Source of the DNA: a phage
DNA length: 51,277 nt
Sequence record: NC_105513.1
Strand: one strand, 5' to 3'
The position numbers and the translations under genes are program-made. Under the pieces are notes generated by a model. That model was not told where the DNA came from. It did no database searches and saw only the letters and a program-made list of their open reading frames with translations. This document shows positions 32-50,677 of this stretch, piece after piece. Numbering within the stretch: position 1 is the first letter of the stretch; each line of letters starts with the position of its first letter.

Positions 32-76
32 ATTATGCCAGGCTTTTACACCTGGCTTTTAACAAAAAGTGCTATT
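32..76 (-). promoter_or_regulatory. box-type promoter (box 57..76, -10 CATAAT 32..37)
   Basis: rc reads AATAGCACTTTTTGTTAAAA-N22-CATAAT; serves gene 50891..51277 across the junction. Confidence 0.6.
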
Positions 77-1898: not shown

Positions 1899-1943
1899 AA
1901 TATACCAATCAGAGGCGCATCGTTTTTAACAAAAAGTGCTATT
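1899..1943 (-). promoter_or_regulatory. box-type promoter (box 1924..1943, -10 TATATT)
   Basis: box, 22-bp spacer, TATATT, then conserved leader CATCGACAACGAATGAGGA. Confidence 0.6.
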
Positions 1944-2393: not shown

Positions 2394-2438
2394 AATATAT
2401 CGGATTGCGAGGATTGAGTTTTAACAAAAAGTGCTATT
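2394..2438 (-). promoter_or_regulatory. box-type promoter (box 2419..2438, -10 TATATT)
   Basis: box, 22-bp spacer, TATATT, conserved leader. Confidence 0.6.
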
Positions 2439-3270: not shown

Positions 3271-3315
3271 ATTATGCCGAATCCAGTCAGGCACGTTTTA
3301 ACAAAAAGTGCTATT
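3271..3315 (-). promoter_or_regulatory. box-type promoter (box 3296..3315, -10 CATAAT)
   Basis: box, 22-bp spacer, CATAAT, leader CACATCGAAACGAGA; first promoter of leftward early block. Confidence 0.6.
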
Positions 3316-3969: not shown

Positions 3970-4455
3970 ATGAGCGAAGAAAATATTAGCACCATGTCGC
4001 GTAGTGAGTTCTGCGATATGCTTCGCAGCCTGGGCGCGGCAATTGGTAGCGGTGAGCGTAATGATGTATTCATGCCAGCACTTTTTTTGTGCGCTAACGT
4101 GGAGAACGGCGAAGCAATTACGGCATCGTACATGCGCCAAGTGGTCAACCGTGTGCCAGAAGTAAAGCAAAAAGGCGTGATCAGCATTAAGCGAAAGGTG
4201 ACTGATGAGGGTGATGGCTTTGTGTTTACGCTCACTGAAGCCAAAAGCAAGCCTCGCGTTCTGACTGGTGAAGAAATCGACGAGATCGCAGAAAAGCGCG
4301 CAGAGAAGGCGGTAAGCAAAATTCTTAATCACCTGGTAAACGTAATGCCAAATATCACAGACCTGGAAGGCGACAAACTTGCTGGGGCGTGTGAGGCTAT
4401 CGGGCGCTACCAGGATATGATTCGTAAACTCGCTGGAGGAAAAGAGGATGAATAA
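3970..4455 (+). CDS. hypothetical protein
   Basis: 161 aa from MSEENIST; RBS AAGGAG; downstream of TTGACA-17-AATAAT promoter. Confidence 0.6.
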   Translation: MSEENISTMSRSEFCDMLRSLGAAIGSGERNDVFMPALFLCANVENGEAITASYMRQVVNRVPEVKQKGVISIKRKVTDEGDGFVFTLTEAKSKPRVLTGEEIDEIAEKRAEKAVSKILNHLVNVMPNITDLEGDKLAGACEAIGRYQDMIRKLAGGKEDE

Positions 4456-4708
4456 GGCATTAATTGGAGTTTTGATTGCAATCGCTACCCTTACCGGATG
4501 CGAAAAGGCATCTGAATCAACAGTTGTCGTAGGAGTGGAGTCAGATTTTAAAGTCGGTCGCCTGTTTACTGTTGATGGATGCACTGCGTACCGATTCTAT
4601 GACAACGGTCGAGCAATCTATTACACCAATTGTAAGGGCGCAACGGATAGCACATACCGCAGCGGCAAAAACGTAATGCACCAACAAGTCACAACAGATA
4701 TTAAATAG
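4448..4708 (+). CDS. putative lipoprotein
   Basis: 86 aa; N-terminal signal peptide with lipobox LTGC (MNKALIGVLIAIATLTGCEK). Confidence 0.6.
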   Translation: MNKALIGVLIAIATLTGCEKASESTVVVGVESDFKVGRLFTVDGCTAYRFYDNGRAIYYTNCKGATDSTYRSGKNVMHQQVTTDIK

Positions 4709-4748
4709 CACTTTTTGTTAAAACTCGAAAACGATAACCAGGCATAAT
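4704..4748 (+). promoter_or_regulatory. box-type promoter (-10 CATAAT 4743..4748)
   Basis: AATAGCACTTTTTGTTAAAAC, stop TAG 4706..4708 inside box; 22-bp spacer. Confidence 0.6.
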
Positions 4749-6759: not shown

Positions 6760-6917
6760 TCTGGTTACTTTTAATCTTTGTCACAAGTTACAATTCCGCC
6801 GCTATTGAATCGCAAGAGTTCCACGGCGAATCAAGATGCCAGGAAGCACGAAAACAAGTTGTTCTCCACATGTCAGATAGTGGGAAAGATGTAACAGCGC
6901 TATGCGTTCGTAAATAG
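6756..6917 (+). CDS. small membrane protein (MIWLL family, 53 aa)
   Basis: ATG overlaps upstream stop; hydrophobic N-terminus MIWLLLIFVTSY; stop TAG embedded in promoter box. Confidence 0.45.
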   Translation: MIWLLLIFVTSYNSAAIESQEFHGESRCQEARKQVVLHMSDSGKDVTALCVRK

Positions 6918-6957
6918 CACTTTTTGCAAAAACACATTATCGGGCTTGCGGTATAGT
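6913..6957 (+). promoter_or_regulatory. box-type promoter (-10 TATAGT 6952..6957)
   Basis: AATAGCACTTTTTGCAAAAAC; 21-bp spacer; conserved leader CCCATCGACAACAAGCGAGGA. Confidence 0.55.
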
Positions 6958-9561: not shown

Positions 9562-9604
9562 TAGCACTTTTTGTTAAAACTTCCGCGAGGGCATTTGTTA
9601 AAGT
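9560..9604 (+). promoter_or_regulatory. box-type promoter (weak -10 TAAAGT)
   Basis: AATAGCACTTTTTGTTAAAAC; 22-bp spacer to TAAAGT. Confidence 0.45.
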
Positions 9605-18054: not shown

Positions 18055-18072
18055 TTTAACAAAAAATGCTAT
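18055..18072 (-). promoter_or_regulatory. orphan box copy, inverted relative to flanking genes
   Basis: TTTAACAAAAAATGCTAT about 50 bp upstream of major capsid ATG; no -10 at 21-22 bp on the minus strand. Confidence 0.4.
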
Positions 18073-21813: not shown

Positions 21814-21832
21814 TTTTAACAAAAAGTGCTAT
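21814..21832 (-). promoter_or_regulatory. orphan box copy, inverted, abutting RBS of chaperone gene
   Basis: TTTTAACAAAAAGTGCTAT directly before CAAGGAGAAAGAAATG. Confidence 0.4.
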
Positions 21833-27750: not shown

Positions 27751-30700
27751 ATGGCTGAAAATATGATAACGGGAAGTAAGGGCGGATCATCAAAACCTTA
27801 TGTTCCGAAAGAGATGGAAGATAACCTGATCTCAATCAACAAAATCAAAATTCTTCTTGCCGTTTCCGATGGCGAGTGCGATCCAGATTTTACACTTCGC
27901 GATCTGTATCTTGATGATGTTCCGGTAATTGCAGGCGACGGAACTGTTAACTACCAGGGTGTGAAAGCTGAATTTCGACCTGGAACGCAGACGCAAGATT
28001 ACATCCAGGGGTTTACTGACACATCAAGCGAAGTGACGCTGGCGCGTGACATTACGACAACAAATCCTTATGTAATTTCCGTAACCAACAAAACATTATC
28101 GGCTATCAGAATCAAAATGCTAATGCCAACAGGCATTAAGCAAGAGGATAACGGCGATCTTGTTGGCGTTAAGGTTACTTATGCTGTTGATATGGCTGTT
28201 GACGGAGACTCTTACAAAGAAGTATTGCGAGACACTATCGAAGGTAAAACGCGATCAGGTTACGACAGAAGCAGAAGGATTGACCTTCCGGCATTTAATG
28301 ATCGCGTATTACTTAGGGTTAGAAGGGTTACGGCAGACAGCACATCTTCTCGTGTTACTGATCTGATTAAACTACAAAGTTACGCTGAGGTTATTGATGC
28401 AAAATTCCGTTACCCTCTGACTGGTCTTGTATACGTTGAATTTGACAGTGAGTTGTTCCCTAACCAGATCCCTAACATTTCAATCAAGAAGAAATGGAAG
28501 TTGATTAATGTTCCGAGCAATTACGATCCGGTAATGCGAGAGTATCACGGTTCATGGGATGGTACGTTCAAAAAAGCGTGGTCGAACAATCCGGCGTGGG
28601 TACTTTATGACATTATCACAAACCAGCGATACGGATTAGATCAGAGAGAGCTTGGTGTGCAGGTTGACAAATGGAGTCTTTACGAAGCGGCGCAATACTG
28701 CGATCAGAAAGTGCCGGACGGAAAAGGCGGTACAGAGCCGCGTTATCTATGCGACGTTGTGATTCAAAGCCAGATTGAGGCTTATCAGCTTATTCGTGAT
28801 ATTTGCTCAATCTTCCGAGGAATGAGCTTTTGGAATGGAGAGAGCTTGTCAATCGTCATTGATAAGCCGCGCGATCCGTCGTACATCTTCACCAATGACA
28901 ACGTTGTTGATGGTGATTTTCAGTACACAACAGCAAGCGAAAAGAGCATGTACACGCAGTGCAACGTGACGTTCGACGACGAACAAAACATGTATCAACA
29001 GGACGTAGAGGGCGTATTCGACACCGAGGCTGCATTGCGCTTTGGATACAATCCGACAAGCATAACAGCGATCGGATGTACACGCAGGAGTGAGGCTAAT
29101 CGGCGCGGTCGATGGATACTAAAAACCAACTTGCGCAGCACTACGGTAAACTTTGCTACTGGACTGGAAGGAATGATCCCATCAATAGGTGATGTGATTG
29201 CTATTGCTGACAACTTTCACAGCAGCAACCTTAAATTAAACCTATCAGGGCGCGTGATGGAAGTTTCCGGCTTGCAGGTGTTCGTTCCGTTTAAGATTGA
29301 CGCGCGACCAGGTGATTTCATTATCATCAACAAACCGGACGGAAAGCCAGTTAAGCGCACAATCTCAAAAGTAAGCGGCGACGGAAAAACCATTGAACTA
29401 AACATTGGGTTTGGGTTTGAAGTTAAACCGGATACAGTTTTTGCAATCGACCGCACTGATATTGCATTGCAGCAATACGTTGTAACGAGTATCGGCAAAG
29501 GTGATGATGATGATGAATTTACATACTCCATCACGGCTGTTGAATATGACCCGAACAAATACGACGAGATTGATTACGGAGTAAACATTGACGACAGGCC
29601 AACTTCAATTGTCCAGCCTGACACAATGGCAGCACCGGAAAACGTGCAAATATCCTCATACTCGCGAATTGTCCAGGGTGCAAGCGTTGAAACAATGGTT
29701 GTGTCGTGGGATAAAGTACCTTACGCATCGCTGTATGAAATGCAATGGCGAAAAGGTGATGGAAACTGGCTGAATACACCACAGACCGCAAACAAAGAAA
29801 TTGAGGTTGAAGGTATTTATTCAGGAAACTACCAGGTAAGGGTTAGATCTGTTTCCGCTTCAGGTTCTACTTCTCCGTGGTCCAGAATTGTGACAGCATC
29901 ACTGACTGGTAAGGTAGGAGAGCCAGGCGCGCCAGTTAACTTAACAGCATCCGACAATGAAGTGTTTGGCATTCGTGTTAAGTGGGGGATGCCAGAAGGG
30001 AGCGGGGACACGGCATACATTGAGCTTCATCAGTCGCCGGATGGAACGGCTGAAAACTCAAGCCTGCTAACGCTGATCCCGTATCCACAATATGAATACT
30101 GGCACGGTACGCTTCCGGCTGGTCATGTTGTATGGTATCGGATCAGGAGCGTGGACAGGATCGGCAACGTTTCCGGTTGGACTGATTTTGTTAGAGGTAT
30201 GGCTTCAGATGATGTGGAGGCTGTTTTAGGAGATATTCTTGATAAGATTTTTGATACTGAAGCAGGTCAGGATCTTAAAGAGAACGCCATTGACAGTGCA
30301 AACAAGATAAAGGACCAGGCGCAAGCAATCATCCAGAATGCTCTTGCTAATGATGCTGATATTAAGTGGACGCGAGTACAAAACGGAAAGAGAAAGGCTG
30401 AATATGGTCACGCTCTTGAGCTTATCGCCACAGAGACTGAGGCGCGAGTTACGCAGATTGAAGAATTGAGGGCGTCAATCGACGAGGATATTGTTTCAAG
30501 CATAAAGACAGTGCAGGAGGCTATCGCCACAGAATCTGAAACGCGAGCAACTCAAATAAACGCTTTGGATTCAAAATTCACAACTGAAATTGACGGCGTA
30601 AAACGCAATACAGCAGCAAGCATTAATCAGGTGAATCAAACAATTGCCAATGAATCAGAGGCGCGAGCGCAGGCCGTTAACGCGCTTGATGCGAAGTTCA

Positions 30701-31329
30701 CAAAGGAGATCGAAGATTTAAACGGAGTCATTAAGACTGAGGTTGAGGCTAACATCTCTGAAGTGAAACAGGCTATCGCTAATGAGACAGAAGCAAGGGT
30801 GCAGGCTGACCAGGCTTTAACAGCTAAATTCGGAGACGTTGAATCTGCATTAGCTCAAAAACTTGATTCGTGGGCTGGCGTGTCATCTGTTGGTGCTAAA
30901 TACTCAATGAAATTGGGGTTAACATACAATGGGCAGAAGTACAGCGCAGGAATGGTAATGCAGCTTTCGCAGAGTTCATCCGGCCTTGTCTCGCAAATCT
31001 TGTTTGACGCGAACAGGTTCGCGATCATGACAAGTTCGACTGGCGGGGTGTATACATTGCCTTTCGTGGTGGAAAATAACCAGGTATTCATTAACAGCCT
31101 GTTAGTTAAAAACGGTTCAATTACAAATGCCATGATCGGTAATTATATTCAGTCGAATAACTTTGTTGCCAATCAGCAGGGTTGGAGGCTGGATAAAAAC
31201 GGCAGATTTGAGAACTACGGTTCTACGTCTGGAGAGGGGGCCATGAAGTTGACCAATGAAACGATAAGTGTACGAGATGCAAACGGGCGCTTGCGTGTTC
31301 AGATTGGTAGGCTTACTGGTACGTGGTAA
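27751..31329 (+). CDS. central tail fibre / host specificity protein (lambda J-like)
   Basis: 1192 aa; FN3-like segments; C-terminal repeated coiled-coil units; position after K/I. Confidence 0.85.
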   Translation: MAENMITGSKGGSSKPYVPKEMEDNLISINKIKILLAVSDGECDPDFTLRDLYLDDVPVIAGDGTVNYQGVKAEFRPGTQTQDYIQGFTDTSSEVTLARDITTTNPYVISVTNKTLSAIRIKMLMPTGIKQEDNGDLVGVKVTYAVDMAVDGDSYKEVLRDTIEGKTRSGYDRSRRIDLPAFNDRVLLRVRRVTADSTSSRVTDLIKLQSYAEVIDAKFRYPLTGLVYVEFDSELFPNQIPNISIKKKWKLINVPSNYDPVMREYHGSWDGTFKKAWSNNPAWVLYDIITNQRYGLDQRELGVQVDKWSLYEAAQYCDQKVPDGKGGTEPRYLCDVVIQSQIEAYQLIRDICSIFRGMSFWNGESLSIVIDKPRDPSYIFTNDNVVDGDFQYTTASEKSMYTQCNVTFDDEQNMYQQDVEGVFDTEAALRFGYNPTSITAIGCTRRSEANRRGRWILKTNLRSTTVNFATGLEGMIPSIGDVIAIADNFHSSNLKLNLSGRVMEVSGLQVFVPFKIDARPGDFIIINKPDGKPVKRTISKVSGDGKTIELNIGFGFEVKPDTVFAIDRTDIALQQYVVTSIGKGDDDDEFTYSITAVEYDPNKYDEIDYGVNIDDRPTSIVQPDTMAAPENVQISSYSRIVQGASVETMVVSWDKVPYASLYEMQWRKGDGNWLNTPQTANKEIEVEGIYSGNYQVRVRSVSASGSTSPWSRIVTASLTGKVGEPGAPVNLTASDNEVFGIRVKWGMPEGSGDTAYIELHQSPDGTAENSSLLTLIPYPQYEYWHGTLPAGHVVWYRIRSVDRIGNVSGWTDFVRGMASDDVEAVLGDILDKIFDTEAGQDLKENAIDSANKIKDQAQAIIQNALANDADIKWTRVQNGKRKAEYGHALELIATETEARVTQIEELRASIDEDIVSSIKTVQEAIATESETRATQINALDSKFTTEIDGVKRNTAASINQVNQTIANESEARAQAVNALDAKFTKEIEDLNGVIKTEVEANISEVKQAIANETEARVQADQALTAKFGDVESALAQKLDSWAGVSSVGAKYSMKLGLTYNGQKYSAGMVMQLSQSSSGLVSQILFDANRFAIMTSSTGGVYTLPFVVENNQVFINSLLVKNGSITNAMIGNYIQSNNFVANQQGWRLDKNGRFENYGSTSGEGAMKLTNETISVRDANGRLRVQIGRLTGTW
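30420..30840 (+). repeat. imperfect tandem repeats in C-terminal region of J-like gene
   Basis: four units starting about 30424, 30523, 30643, 30775 encoding IA-x-E-(T/S)-E-(A/T)-R...NALD-x-KFT-x-EI. Confidence 0.6.
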
Positions 31330-31372: not shown

Positions 31373-31678
31373 ATGGCTGAATATGGGATCTCAACTTGGG
31401 ATGCAAACGGGAAGTATAACAACTACGGAATCAAGCCAGTTTCCGTTGTTGGTGTCATTAGCCTTGCCGCTGGTCAGACAAGCGGATCGTGGAGCTTTAG
31501 CATTCCAAGTGGTTTTAAGGTTGGGTATGTTGTTTCACTTGATGAAGGTGCCAGGGGAGTTGGAAGGGAAATAGTAGCATCTGGAAACACAATAAGAATT
31601 AGTCCTACATCGTCGGTTGGTGCAAATAGATATTCTTCTTCAAAGTGCGAGTTAGTTGTTTTTCTTGAGAGGGTTTAA
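31373..31678 (+). CDS. hypothetical tail-fibre-associated protein (MAEYG family)
   Basis: 101 aa, RBS GGAGG; begins MAEYGISTWDANGK. Confidence 0.5.
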   Translation: MAEYGISTWDANGKYNNYGIKPVSVVGVISLAAGQTSGSWSFSIPSGFKVGYVVSLDEGARGVGREIVASGNTIRISPTSSVGANRYSSSKCELVVFLERV

Positions 31679-31679
31679 A

Positions 31680-32318
31680 ATGGCTGAGTATGGAGCAATG
31701 TTATCTTTATCAAATGGGAATCCATTTGTCACACCAAAATCAACGCCATTTTGCTTATATGGCAAGTACACTTATTCATCTTCAGGTACTTCTGCCTATC
31801 ATAGTGCAAGCGCAAATATACCAGTAAACCAATCTTATCCATGCATGGCATTTATAAAAACAACAAACACACAGCAGCCAACTGCATTAATAGCTTACAG
31901 GAATGGTGGCAACATTTATGTAAACGGAGGAAATCCATATGGTCAATCATTTACAATGACTGTTTATATATTTGCCATATTCCCTCAAACTCTACCCAAA
32001 TATGGTATGGCTATATGGGATGCAAGCGGCAAGTTGGTTTTAACTAATGAAAGCAGGGTGCTAACAGATCTTGTTACAATTGGTACTCCTGGTTCTTCAG
32101 GTGGAACGAATATAGATCAAACGTTATCTGGTTCTTATGCCGTTTGCCCTTCAAGGCTTGGTGCGGTTATAGGTATGGGCGCTTCTGATATATATACATC
32201 ATGCAGGTATAATGGTTCAAGCACAAGGATAGGTGCAGCAAGGACAACGCCAGGAACAGGTTCTATAACAAATAACGGAAATTCAATAATTGCAATAAAG
32301 ACTGATATTTACGACTAA
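31680..32318 (+). CDS. hypothetical tail-fibre-associated protein (MAEYG family)
   Basis: 212 aa; begins MAEYG and has internal KYGMAIWDASGK repeat of the neighbour's N-terminus; Gly/Ser/Thr/Asn-rich. Confidence 0.5.
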   Translation: MAEYGAMLSLSNGNPFVTPKSTPFCLYGKYTYSSSGTSAYHSASANIPVNQSYPCMAFIKTTNTQQPTALIAYRNGGNIYVNGGNPYGQSFTMTVYIFAIFPQTLPKYGMAIWDASGKLVLTNESRVLTDLVTIGTPGSSGGTNIDQTLSGSYAVCPSRLGAVIGMGASDIYTSCRYNGSSTRIGAARTTPGTGSITNNGNSIIAIKTDIYD

Positions 32319-32320
32319 TG

Positions 32321-32348
32321 AAAAGGGGCTTTCGCCCCTTTATTTTTA
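32321..32348. terminator. bidirectional terminator between convergent genes
   Basis: AAAAGGGGC-TTTC-GCCCCTTTATTTTT, A-run and T-run on either side. Confidence 0.65.
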
Positions 32349-32349
32349 T

Positions 32350-32577
32350 TCACAGACTGCAATCAGCGTTTTTAAAGTTATCAATACTTACCCACTGAAA
32401 ATTAAACGGATAGCCAGCCTTAACAAGAGTGCGGTCGCCAACTCGTTTCACTCCGAAAATAGCAACTGAATACTGCATTCCGCTATTTTCATAAATAGCC
32501 GTGCATTCACGTTTAGGCATATTTGCACATCCAGTCAGTGCAACGGCTGCAATCAAAACGGCGATTAACTTTTTCAT
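32350..32577 (-). CDS. lipoprotein, possible Cor-like superinfection exclusion protein
   Basis: 75 aa; signal peptide with lipobox LTGC; RBS AAGGAG; own promoter box 32634..32651; convergent with tail fibre genes. Confidence 0.55.
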   Translation of the reverse strand: MKKLIAVLIAAVALTGCANMPKRECTAIYENSGMQYSVAIFGVKRVGDRTLVKAGYPFNFQWVSIDNFKNADCSL

Positions 32578-32607
32578 TTTGTGTCTCCTTAGTTGTTATT
32601 GGTTGCA

Positions 32608-32651
32608 ACTATACACGATCTTGCGGTGGGCGTTTAGCAAAAAGTGCTATT
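32608..32651 (-). promoter_or_regulatory. box-type promoter (box 32634..32651, -10 TATAGT)
   Basis: rc AATAGCACTTTTTGCTAAA-N22-TATAGT upstream of lipoprotein gene. Confidence 0.55.
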
Positions 32652-32699
32652 CTTGTTCTTTTTGTTATCCGGTGTTCTCAAATCTGCGGAGTCTTAAAT

Positions 32700-33076
32700 T
32701 TAGCTCAAAAAGTGAACAACAATAGAGCGCAATACATACAGATAAATATATACATACATATAAATCAATAAGTTAGTAGTATATATATTCATGTTTGTTC
32801 TTTATTGTTATCTATGTTTTGTGTGATTTTGTGCGTCTGGTGATTTTTCTGTGATTATGCATGTGTCAGTGGTTATGTGTGTCTATATATCTATATCCGG
32901 CGCAAATGAGGGAACAAGAGAACAAAAAGACAACAAAGGTATTTATCAATCACTTACATGTGAATTTTGTTATCCAATTCTCCTAGAACGTTGTTAGAAC
33001 AGAAAAAACAAAATAACTGTTGACTAAACGCATTAAATAGCTAAAATGCAGGCATACCAACCAACGAGGGCAAATC
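32700..33076. repeat. AT/GT-rich non-coding region B, homologous to region A
   Basis: ORF-free; 16-mer AAATCAATAAGTTAGT at 32762..32777; GTGTGATT and GGTGATTTTT segments shared with region A. Confidence 0.6.
33020..33047 (+). promoter_or_regulatory. sigma70-like promoter TTGACT-16-TAAAAT
   Basis: about 30 nt upstream of exonuclease ATG 33077. Confidence 0.5.
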
Positions 33077-41684: not shown

Positions 41685-41728
41685 AATAGCATTTTTTGTT
41701 AAACGATGATTTAATGATTGTGTATTAT
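41685..41728 (+). promoter_or_regulatory. box-type promoter (-10 TATTAT 41723..41728)
   Basis: AATAGCATTTTTTGTTAAAC; 21-bp spacer; upstream of helicase gene. Confidence 0.55.
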
Positions 41729-43801: not shown

Positions 43802-44207
43802 TAAAGGCGATTATCTGGAGTTTTACGAAAGAGATCCGACAGATACTCTGAAAGAGGAATCGCACCAGATCGGGGCGTTTCAATGGGTAACTTATGCTCA
43901 TCCTGAATTACTGGCATGGCATACGAAAAACGAGGGCGATAAGGGAATCGCCACCGCAATGATGGATCAGCAAGCCGGACTAGTTAAGGGTGTAAGTGAT
44001 TTTATCATCCTGATTGGATTAAAAGGCCGTTACCCGTTCGCGGCAATAGAGATGAAGCGCGTCAATAAGTCCGGCAAGGGGAAGGCTTCACCAGTCAGCA
44101 AGGATCAAAAAGCCTTCTTGCGCCGTGTGCGTGAGCTTGGCGGATTCGCTGCCGTAACATACGGATATAAGCAATTCATGATCGCTGTAGAATACATGAT
44201 GAAATAG
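43788..44207 (+). CDS. putative VRR-NUC domain nuclease
   Basis: 139 aa; GVSDFIILIG ... AAIEMKR resembles PD-(D/E)XK VRR-NUC core; adjacent to helicase. Confidence 0.5.
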   Translation: MAMTDKGDYLEFYERDPTDTLKEESHQIGAFQWVTYAHPELLAWHTKNEGDKGIATAMMDQQAGLVKGVSDFIILIGLKGRYPFAAIEMKRVNKSGKGKASPVSKDQKAFLRRVRELGGFAAVTYGYKQFMIAVEYMMK

Positions 44208-44247
44208 CACTTTTTGTTAAAACTGGCGCGAAGGATTGCGCCATAAT
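44203..44247 (+). promoter_or_regulatory. box-type promoter (-10 CATAAT 44242..44247)
   Basis: stop TAG 44205..44207 inside box; inverted repeat in spacer; upstream of dam. Confidence 0.6.
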
Positions 44248-45245: not shown

Positions 45246-45288
45246 TAGCACTTTTTGTTAAAACGCCCGACCTTGTGTCGGGCATAAT
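45244..45288 (+). promoter_or_regulatory. box-type promoter (-10 CATAAT 45283..45288)
   Basis: 22-bp spacer containing inverted repeat GCCCGA...TCGGGC. Confidence 0.6.
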
Positions 45289-47092: not shown

Positions 47093-47308
47093 ATGAAAGA
47101 TTTTTTAAACGCTGCAACTTCCGGCACTGGCGGCGCGTCAATCACTGGCGCGGTAACTGGTCAAACAACTATTGCAATAGCCAGCTTCGTTTTGATGGCT
47201 GCATTTGGTATGTGGGGCGCTTATCTTCGCTGGCGTGATAGTAAGGCGCTACGTAACGCGCTTGAATGCGGTGATATTAAGAAAGCTATTGAGATCAGAG
47301 GTAAATAA
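47093..47308 (+). CDS. holin
   Basis: 71 aa, hydrophobic core [29 protein letters not shown] and charged C-terminus; first gene of lysis cassette. Confidence 0.6.
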
Positions 47309-47796
47309 TGAGTATAAAACAAAGAGTGACCGCTGCGGCTTTTGGCGTTGCTCTTGCTCTTACTTCTCCATTGCTGGAGGAAATAGAAGGAGTAAAATAT
47401 AAGCCGTACAAAGATATTGCTGGAATATGGACGGTTTGCGCCGGAATAACTGGACCTGACGTAATACCAGGTAAAACGTACACACAGAGAGAGTGCGATG
47501 CGCTACTGGCAAAGCATATCAAGATCGCAAAGGATGAAGTTGATAAGCGCGTGAAGGTTGATATTCCTGATACAATGCGCGCGGCAATGTATTCATTCAC
47601 ATACAATGCTGGCACTGGTGCTTTTAGAAATTCAACCATGCTTAAGCTGATTAATAACGGTCGTTATATGGAAGCGTGCGATCAGTTATGGCGATGGACA
47701 AAATACACCAATCCAAAAACAGGAAAGAAAGAAACGTCTAAAGGACTGCGAAACCGCCGCGCTGTGGAATTTAAATATTGCATTAAGGATCTGTAA
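47308..47796 (+). CDS. endolysin (phage lysozyme, GH24-like)
   Basis: 162 aa; E-x8-D-x5-T triad context ([16 protein letters not shown]); N-terminal hydrophobic stretch suggests signal-anchor-release type. Confidence 0.8.
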
Positions 47797-47798
47797 TT

Positions 47799-48197
47799 AT
47801 GAGAAAGTTATCAATAATCGCAATCGCTGTTATTTTGTCTGGATGTTCAAGCGTTATGCCACTGACCGGATTAATCGGTAGTAAGCCGGAAATCACAGCA
47901 CAGGCAGGAGCGGAGAACGTAAAGCAGACCGTTGGCGTTACCGCAAAGCAGGACACCAGCACAAAACAGGAAACTACAATAAATGAATCTGCGGTTGATA
48001 AGGTGGACAATTCCAGCAAGAAGGATTTTACTACGTCAACCATTCAGGCTAACACCATCAAGGCTGATAAAATCCAGGTCGTGCAAGGTGGGCAAAGGAA
48101 GTGGTACGATCCTATAATCTATTGCGCGGCAATTTTTAGTGGTCTTTTGTCAATGCTTTACTTTTCCTACCGCAAAGGCAACAAAAAGGAGGCTTAA
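47799..48197 (+). CDS. unimolecular spanin (T1 gp11-like)
   Basis: 132 aa; N-terminal lipobox LSGC plus C-terminal TM helix IIYCAAIFSGLLSMLYFSY. Confidence 0.65.
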   Translation: MRKLSIIAIAVILSGCSSVMPLTGLIGSKPEITAQAGAENVKQTVGVTAKQDTSTKQETTINESAVDKVDNSSKKDFTTSTIQANTIKADKIQVVQGGQRKWYDPIIYCAAIFSGLLSMLYFSYRKGNKKEA

Positions 48198-48465: not shown

Positions 48466-48510
48466 AATATACCCGATACGAGATCAGGTGTTTTAACAAA
48501 AAGTGCTATT
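48466..48510 (-). promoter_or_regulatory. box-type promoter (box 48491..48510, -10 TATATT)
   Basis: 22-bp spacer; conserved leader CATCGAAGCGAATATGAGGA. Confidence 0.6.
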
Positions 48511-50632: not shown

Positions 50633-50677
50633 ATAATACCGCACCAATGCTACCCGCATTTAACAAAAAATGCTATT
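50633..50677 (-). promoter_or_regulatory. box-type promoter (box 50659..50677, -10 TATTAT)
   Basis: 22-bp spacer; leader CATCAAAAAGGAG; upstream of ATPase gene. Confidence 0.6.

Follow-up and report, generated by a model that had tools for sequence, protein, structure and literature searches.

The open reading frame at positions 32350 to 32577 (minus strand) of the phage sequence NC_105513.1 is cor, a gene of a T1-like coliphage, and probably encodes a small outer-membrane lipoprotein that would jam the receptor FhuA from the periplasm; a probability of about 0.8 is given to this functional statement as a whole. In essence the window, the whole stretch of 51,277 nucleotides that was analyzed, is a T1-like phage genome of the Hanrivervirus type (Drexlerviridae, Tempevirinae). 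Its identity to Escherichia phage JLBYU09 lies at 99.8-100%, and Henu8, herni and further phages match it at 95-97%. The gene is already known, as it is annotated as cor in near-identical public genomes, and its detection here is a re-discovery. The discovery value is accordingly small, cor being a textbook case within a curated family.

The coding sequence and its immediate signals are as follows.

32350..32577, minus strand: cor coding sequence, 75 amino acids plus stop (from the ORF list, family models and dN/dS)
32527..32577, minus strand: lipoprotein signal peptide, residues 1-16 plus the Cys17 codon (32527..32529), with lipobox L-T-G-C
32585..32590, minus strand: Shine-Dalgarno element AAGGAG, 7 nt 5' of the cor ATG (from the sequence)

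The product, read from an ATG start over 75 codons, is MKKLIAVLIAAVALTGCANMPKRECTAIYENSGMQYSVAIFGVKRVGDRTLVKAGYPFNFQWVSIDNFKNADCSL. Its N-terminus, as read from the sequence, begins with MKK (two lysines), continues with a hydrophobic core of 10 residues and ends in the lipobox L-T-G-C, whose cysteine is Cys17; the layout is MKK-LIAVLIAAVA-LTG ahead of C17, that is MKKLIAVLIAAVA-LTG-C17. The first-pass annotation, which had described a 75-aa lipoprotein with lipobox LTGC on the opposite strand at this position, is thereby borne out by the sequence. The mature part comprises 59 residues and carries two further cysteines, C25 and C73. Under the E. coli +2 sorting rule, Asp at position +2 leads to retention of a lipoprotein in the inner membrane. 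The residue at +2 after Cys17 in Cor is Ala, and therefore the protein should reach the outer membrane via Lol transfer.

The gene shows the marks of purifying selection. Pairwise Nei-Gojobori comparisons with Henu8, herni, PeterMerian and W011D gave dN/dS values of 0.04-0.10 at dS of 0.13-1.1, and the comparison with PeterMerian counted 23.5 synonymous against 5.5 non-synonymous differences. The AAGGAG element is kept in Henu8, herni and PeterMerian. Because of the dN/dS of 0.04-0.10, together with hundreds of homologues, a chance reading frame is excluded, and by these sequence measures cor is a real gene under purifying selection. Two plus-strand ORFs lying over cor, at 32501..32725 and 32523..32771, were rejected as spurious since the substitution pattern matches the minus-strand frame of cor.

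Membership of this reading frame in the Cor family is close to certain. NCBIfam NF047972, an equivalog model named lamb_exclu_cor (phage exclusion lipoprotein Cor), recognizes the protein at 70.3 bits, its cut-off being 31, with residues 1-73 aligned to model positions 1-76 of 78. PHROG 1119, the Cor superinfection exclusion protein, matches at E=5.3e-29, residues 1-74 covering its positions 1-75 of 78. The protein shares 100% of its residues with the one annotated in JLBYU09 as "putative super infection exclusion protein"; it is 97% identical to Henu8 gp45, annotated as Cor superinfection exclusion protein, and 93% identical to PeterMerian Cor (bas05_0025). Identity to T1 Cor is 56% (E 8e-19), and to the experimentally characterized Cor proteins it is 37% for phi80, 34% for HK022 and 34% for N15, all with E about 1e-6. 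These full-length matches to curated models and to named Cor proteins, along with a T1-like gene order, uphold the earlier proposal of a Cor-type factor. Pfam holds no model for Cor, and all Pfam matches of the protein were sub-threshold, namely LPAM_1 at 19.6 bits (cut-off 20), DUF6491 and Phage_lipoprotein PF24052 (E=0.05).

The family is widespread. The Cor protein was found by tblastn in 242 phage records, and a profile built on a nine-sequence alignment matched 272 protein clusters, a good many of which belong to enterobacterial prophages and carry the name "phage exclusion lipoprotein Cor"; an earlier word-indexed protein search had returned only 6 close relatives. Across 71 Cor homologues C17, C25, C73, G55 and P57 are invariant, and G16, G33, V38, G42, A54, Y56, F58, V63 and F68 are nearly so. 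The motif AGYPF stands out among these positions, with A54, Y56 and F58 each at least 90% conserved in the same 71 homologues. The Cor proteins of JLBYU09, Henu8, PeterMerian and T1 all have 75 residues and the same lipobox and cysteines as the protein in the window, and those of JLBYU09 and Henu8 differ from it in nothing of substance. The Cor proteins of phi80, N15, HK022 and mEp167, which are listed together as experimentally characterized, FhuA-inactivating Cor proteins of temperate phages, share the family NF047972, the size and the cysteines. In phi80, HK022 and N15 the AGYPF motif is kept, its G, Y, P and F being invariant in the nine-sequence alignment, whereas overall identity falls to 34-37% and three residues are deleted after the lipobox region.

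The genomic position of cor gives a second line of evidence, which bears on the receptor. Three tail genes precede it.

27751..31329, plus strand: cassette gene 1, J-like tail tip protein of 1192 aa (Pfam FNIII-A_GpJ, Phage-tail_3 and Phage_Tail_Tip; annotation of relatives)
31373..31678, plus strand: cassette gene 2, phrog_557 protein of 101 aa (PHROG 557, E=7.6e-30)
31680..32318, plus strand: cassette gene 3, phrog_425 protein of 212 aa (PHROG 425, E=8.7e-69)

All three are on the plus strand with cor convergent to them, and the placement right after the tail genes claimed for it is thus confirmed. The phrog_425 protein is a candidate component of the receptor-binding module. The order J, phrog_557, phrog_425, cor was also found in T1, PeterMerian, W011D, herni, YD-2008.s, phi80, HK022 and N15. 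Among these, cor is convergent to the cassette in T1, PeterMerian, W011D, herni and the Dhillonvirus YD-2008.s, and co-directional with it in phi80, HK022 and N15. Beyond cor the window has a 500-bp non-coding gap followed by the recombination genes exoVIII-erf-ssb, and T1 and other Drexlerviridae likewise have a convergent cor between the cassette and this block; in YD-2008.s it is a tail fiber gene, not the recombination block, that lies beyond cor. The cor genes of lambdoid phages and N15, by contrast, are prophage morons that run with the tail genes, while the cor of the window is convergent, belongs to a virulent phage and carries a phage-specific box.

The cassette proteins were compared with their orthologues in PeterMerian, T1, phi80, HK022 and N15. 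The phrog_557 protein is 58-71% identical to these and the phrog_425 protein 50-68%, and against PeterMerian the two proteins reach only 50-58%. Both are closer to phi80/HK022 (71% for phrog_557; 61-68% for phrog_425) than to T1 (61% and 56%), whereas Cor shows the reverse, with 56% identity to T1 and 37% to phi80. This pattern of phi80/HK022-like partners beside a T1-like Cor indicates, at the level of sequence, a mosaic exchange inside the J, 557, 425 and cor cassette. As a further observation, the proteins of 31373..31678 and 31680..32318 each start with MAEYG, and a motif YG(I/M)xxWDAxGK recurs within the latter at residues about 116-127.

Expression of cor appears to be governed by two elements that flank the gene. 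The first is a 17-nt box, TAGCACTTTTTGYTAAA, that recurs throughout the window, and the second is a hairpin between cor and the tail genes.

32608..32649, minus strand: putative cor promoter, with an exact box TAGCACTTTTTGCTAAA at 32633..32649 and, given as 21 nt from it, a -10-like TATAGT at 32608..32613
58..74, 1925..1941, 2420..2436, 3297..3313, 18055..18071, 21815..21831, 32633..32649, 48492..48508 and 50659..50675, minus strand: box copies
4706..4722, 6915..6931, 9562..9578, 41687..41703, 44205..44221 and 45246..45262, plus strand: box copies
32322..32341, both strands: putative bidirectional intrinsic terminator, hairpin GGGGC-TTTC-GCCCC (from a terminator scan), between the stops of 31680..32318 and cor

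The box was detected by k-mer counting alone. At no more than one mismatch it occurs 15 times in the window and 0 times in 100 shuffles. On the coding strand, each copy precedes a start codon by 85-100 nt, and a TATAAT-like hexamer about 25 nt 3' of the box is followed by a ribosome-binding site and ATG. The stretch after each copy is variable, and a short inverted repeat is often present there. Many copies share a conserved leader, CATCGA(C/A)AACGA, which is missing from the copy at cor. Within the box, TTGYTA (TTGTTA) stands 21-22 nt from the -10, and the canonical sigma-70 geometry is absent. A generic sigma-70 scan found no minus-strand promoter upstream of cor, because of this spacing. 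At cor, five Tempevirinae phages keep both the box and the -10 while the spacer bases differ, a footprint pattern that supports function. We infer from the sequence that the box at cor acts as a promoter, and the recurrent element may represent a phage-specific or activator-dependent promoter class driving small accessory genes. The TAGCACTTTTTG box was absent from T1 and YD-2008.s in the regions upstream of cor, the parts of both genomes that were examined, and the upstream regulatory region of T1 cor accordingly differs from that of the window.

The hairpin folds with -14.0 and -15.4 kcal/mol on the two strands (z -3.7 and -3.6) and is followed by U-runs in both directions, being flanked by A- and T-runs. 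Compensatory stem changes keep it in W011D, T1 and YD-2008.s. Bidirectional terminator is a fair description of such an element on the sequence features just given. The box promoter and the shared bidirectional terminator that the first-pass annotation had placed around the gene are therefore both present as sequence elements.

An AlphaFold2 model was computed on the alignment of homologues. With a mean pLDDT of 87.5, it shows a signal helix and a small five-stranded beta domain. A Foldseek search of this model against the PDB ranked T5 Llp, in the FhuA-Llp crystal structure (8a60_B), at the top, with probability 1.00, TM 0.51/0.61 and rmsd 2.8 A over 59 columns at a weak E=0.074, and Tudor/chromo-like small barrels came close behind. 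Against predicted viral structures a "super-infection exclusion protein" of T1-like origin came first (E=5e-8), and T5-like lipoproteins or "receptor-blocking protein" ranked 2-4 in BFVD. Llp is also the top sequence match to Cor in the PDB, marginally so by phmmer (E=0.044) and by profile (E=0.038, 8a60_B). Alignment of the Cor profile with Llp by hhalign gave a probability of 87% and E=4e-6, to which the signal peptide contributed in part. The comparison with Llp, which had been suggested together with that to Cor, thus yields a similarity that is remote but consistent in sequence and fold.

Like the predicted Cor product, T5 Llp is a small lipoprotein of the outer membrane; its mature part has about 60 residues and a cysteine pair at equivalent positions. 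C25 and C73 of Cor (mature positions 9 and 57) align with Cys11 and Cys58 of Llp, which form a disulfide (PMC9586334). By analogy, mature Cor probably contains a C25-C73 disulfide. The two proteins differ in that identity is about 20% with E of 0.04-0.07, Llp falls outside the Cor family model, and llp adjoins the pb5 RBP gene in a genome architecture other than that around cor. The predicted folds of Cor and Llp have been reported to be the same (bioRxiv 10.64898/2026.03.26.714494; PMC13164509), and a structure prediction of KanT1 Cor together with FhuA has been published (PMC13164509). Llp binds the periplasmic face and the plug of FhuA, and the loops EL7 and EL8 are folded inward so that the receptor-binding protein is blocked (PMC9586334); the presumed common target of Llp and Cor is FhuA, with a periplasmic jam by reverse allostery (PMC9586334). 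The 2026 bioRxiv preprint (10.64898/2026.03.26.714494) calls the molecular mechanism of Cor not yet elucidated. The reference list of PMC13164509 includes Arguijo-Hernandez et al.

FhuA is the likely target of Cor in the NC_105513.1 phage, since the cassette is tied to FhuA users, the receptor of PeterMerian is FhuA, and the phrog_557 and phrog_425 proteins have the identities given above. The cassette downstream of J has been reported in the FhuA-dependent phages T1, phi80, HK022, N15 and ES18, and within the BASEL set the full cassette of phrog_557, phrog_425 and cor occurs in FhuA users only (PMC13164509). Matching of alleles to receptors at the cassette loci fits the link to FhuA (PMC8594841), and the terminal receptor of PeterMerian was experimentally determined to be FhuA (BASEL supplementary table). 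A search of the literature found no published receptor for JLBYU09. In phi80, N15 and HK022, Cor inactivates FhuA, reduces ferrichrome uptake and protects against colicin M (PMC3594210). By its cor cassette, the NC_105513.1 phage most likely uses FhuA.

For the Cor of the window we infer lipidation, outer-membrane location, FhuA as the target, an allosteric mechanism, the timing of expression and exclusion, and the following course of events is proposed. cor would be transcribed alone from its box-type promoter, opposed to the tail operon, and its transcript would stop at the hairpin common to that operon. Sec would export pre-Cor, Cys17 would be lipid-modified and signal peptidase II would cleave, leaving mature Cor in the inner leaflet of the outer membrane. 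The 59-residue mature protein, with its small beta-sheet fold and presumed C25-C73 disulfide, would bind TonB-dependent FhuA at its plug and on the periplasmic side. This binding would shape the extracellular loops of FhuA such that phage receptor-binding proteins cannot attach, as shown for T5 Llp. Infected cells and lysis debris would then no longer adsorb the NC_105513.1 phage or other FhuA-dependent phages (T1, T5, phi80), and uptake of ferrichrome, albomycin and colicin M would be impaired. Infected cells should thus turn refractory to other FhuA-dependent phages, a point of relevance to phage cocktails. The Cor proteins tested by experiment are only 34-37% identical to that of the window, and the proposed mechanism is extrapolated from T5 Llp.

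The same molecular action could serve another end, with the main benefit being that progeny are spared inactivation on FhuA debris, rather than that competitors are excluded. The gene set of the window is that of a virulent T1-like phage, the ORFs inspected showing neither an integrase nor a repressor, and exclusion factors are described as keeping progeny from adsorbing unproductively to infected cells and to fragments left after lysis (PMC13164509, PMC12685063). A benefit of this kind has also been proposed for T5 Llp. However, this account is compatible with the molecular mechanism set out above, as both benefits follow from one receptor block, and as a separate explanation it is judged unlikely.

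A Cor-family lipoprotein might instead block a receptor other than FhuA, e.g. the TonB-dependent BtuB. On this account the Cor/Llp fold has acquired new targets in other phages. Cor-like proteins are present in the BtuB-dependent Markadamsvirinae and in one Tempevirinae species (PMC13164509), and the viral Foldseek matches include the BtuB-type "receptor-blocking protein" of phiR2-01 as well as T5-like lipoproteins. Rtp45 of phage Rtp, a related member of the Drexlerviridae, is a superinfection exclusion factor of similar genomic logic, a small periplasmic lipoprotein encoded at the RBP locus that alters the extracellular loops of its own receptor (PMC12685063); it acts on LptDE, its target LptD not being a TonB-dependent transporter, and the searches run detected no sequence relationship between it and the Cor of the window. 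Against a target other than FhuA, the window holds the full cassette that the BASEL set shows in FhuA users only (PMC13164509), the 93%-identical Cor belongs to the experimentally FhuA-dependent PeterMerian, and the nearest characterized homologues, those of T1, phi80, HK022 and N15, all come from FhuA phages. A non-FhuA target is on balance very improbable, and FhuA is retained.

The Tempevirinae or T1-type Cor may yet differ mechanistically from Llp and from lambdoid Cor, and its non-canonical box could act as a specific switch to early expression in a virulent phage. Other outer-membrane proteins or the phrog_557 and phrog_425 products could be needed, for example, or more than one TonB-dependent transporter could be blocked. 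Such a difference is conceivable because Cor is only 34-37% identical to the tested lambdoid proteins and its cassette partners are phi80/HK022-like, and it is given only a slim chance.

Three further features of the window bear on the remaining explanation and on a second lipoprotein that had been pointed out.

4448..4708, plus strand: second lipoprotein, 86 aa, lipobox LTGC (DUF4884 / PHROG 6360)
47308..47796, plus strand: endolysin-like ORF whose N-terminus has a hydrophobic segment of SAR type
47799..48197, plus strand: third lipoprotein, 132 aa, lipobox LSGC, with a C-terminal hydrophobic stretch

The C-terminal hydrophobic stretch of the third lipoprotein is probably a membrane anchor, and from its sequence the protein looks like a T1-type unimolecular spanin. 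That cor itself encodes a lysis-related or unrelated small lipoprotein (e.g. o-spanin-like), or is a non-functional chance ORF, can be dismissed: its product is indeed a small lipoprotein with only sub-threshold Pfam matches, but a separate spanin-type lipoprotein directly follows the endolysin-like gene, and cor lies 15 kb off in the tail/RBP cassette, with strong matches to curated Cor models and the low dN/dS given above. A spanin identity for cor was rejected on its location in the tail/RBP cassette and not in the lysis cassette, where 47799..48197 is the spanin-type candidate.

The second lipoprotein at 4448..4708, which the first-pass annotation had mentioned beside cor, exists with its lipobox, whereas kinship to Cor/Llp does not hold. 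Its residues C45 and C62 are invariant. The family occurs in Drexlerviridae of any receptor, namely FhuA (PeterMerian), BtuB (tonnikala, counted as BtuB type as the closest relative listed for the BtuB-dependent FritzSarasin) and LptD (JeanPiccard), and also in Pseudomonas, Xanthomonas and Erwinia phages. An AF2 model of the protein (all-beta, pLDDT 70.5) gave no Llp-like or otherwise meaningful match in the PDB. As a DUF4884 protein with no Llp match and a distribution independent of receptor type, it was rejected as a second Cor/Llp-type factor.

The gap at 32578..33076 between cor and exoVIII has an AT-rich core at about 32730..32800 with ATAC/ATAT-type runs, and the corresponding place in T1 is likewise AT-rich (L002 2750..2840). 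An Rfam search at the gathering threshold returned no RNA family anywhere in the window, including this 500-bp gap beside cor. The gap may serve as a site of replication or recombination, or may hold divergent regulatory elements. Lastly, about 18 unannotated MG0656xx "Campylobacter phage" records, with Campylobacter jejuni as the stated host, are 95-97% identical to the phage of the window across the cor region, and these are probably coliphage contaminants or mislabelled entries.
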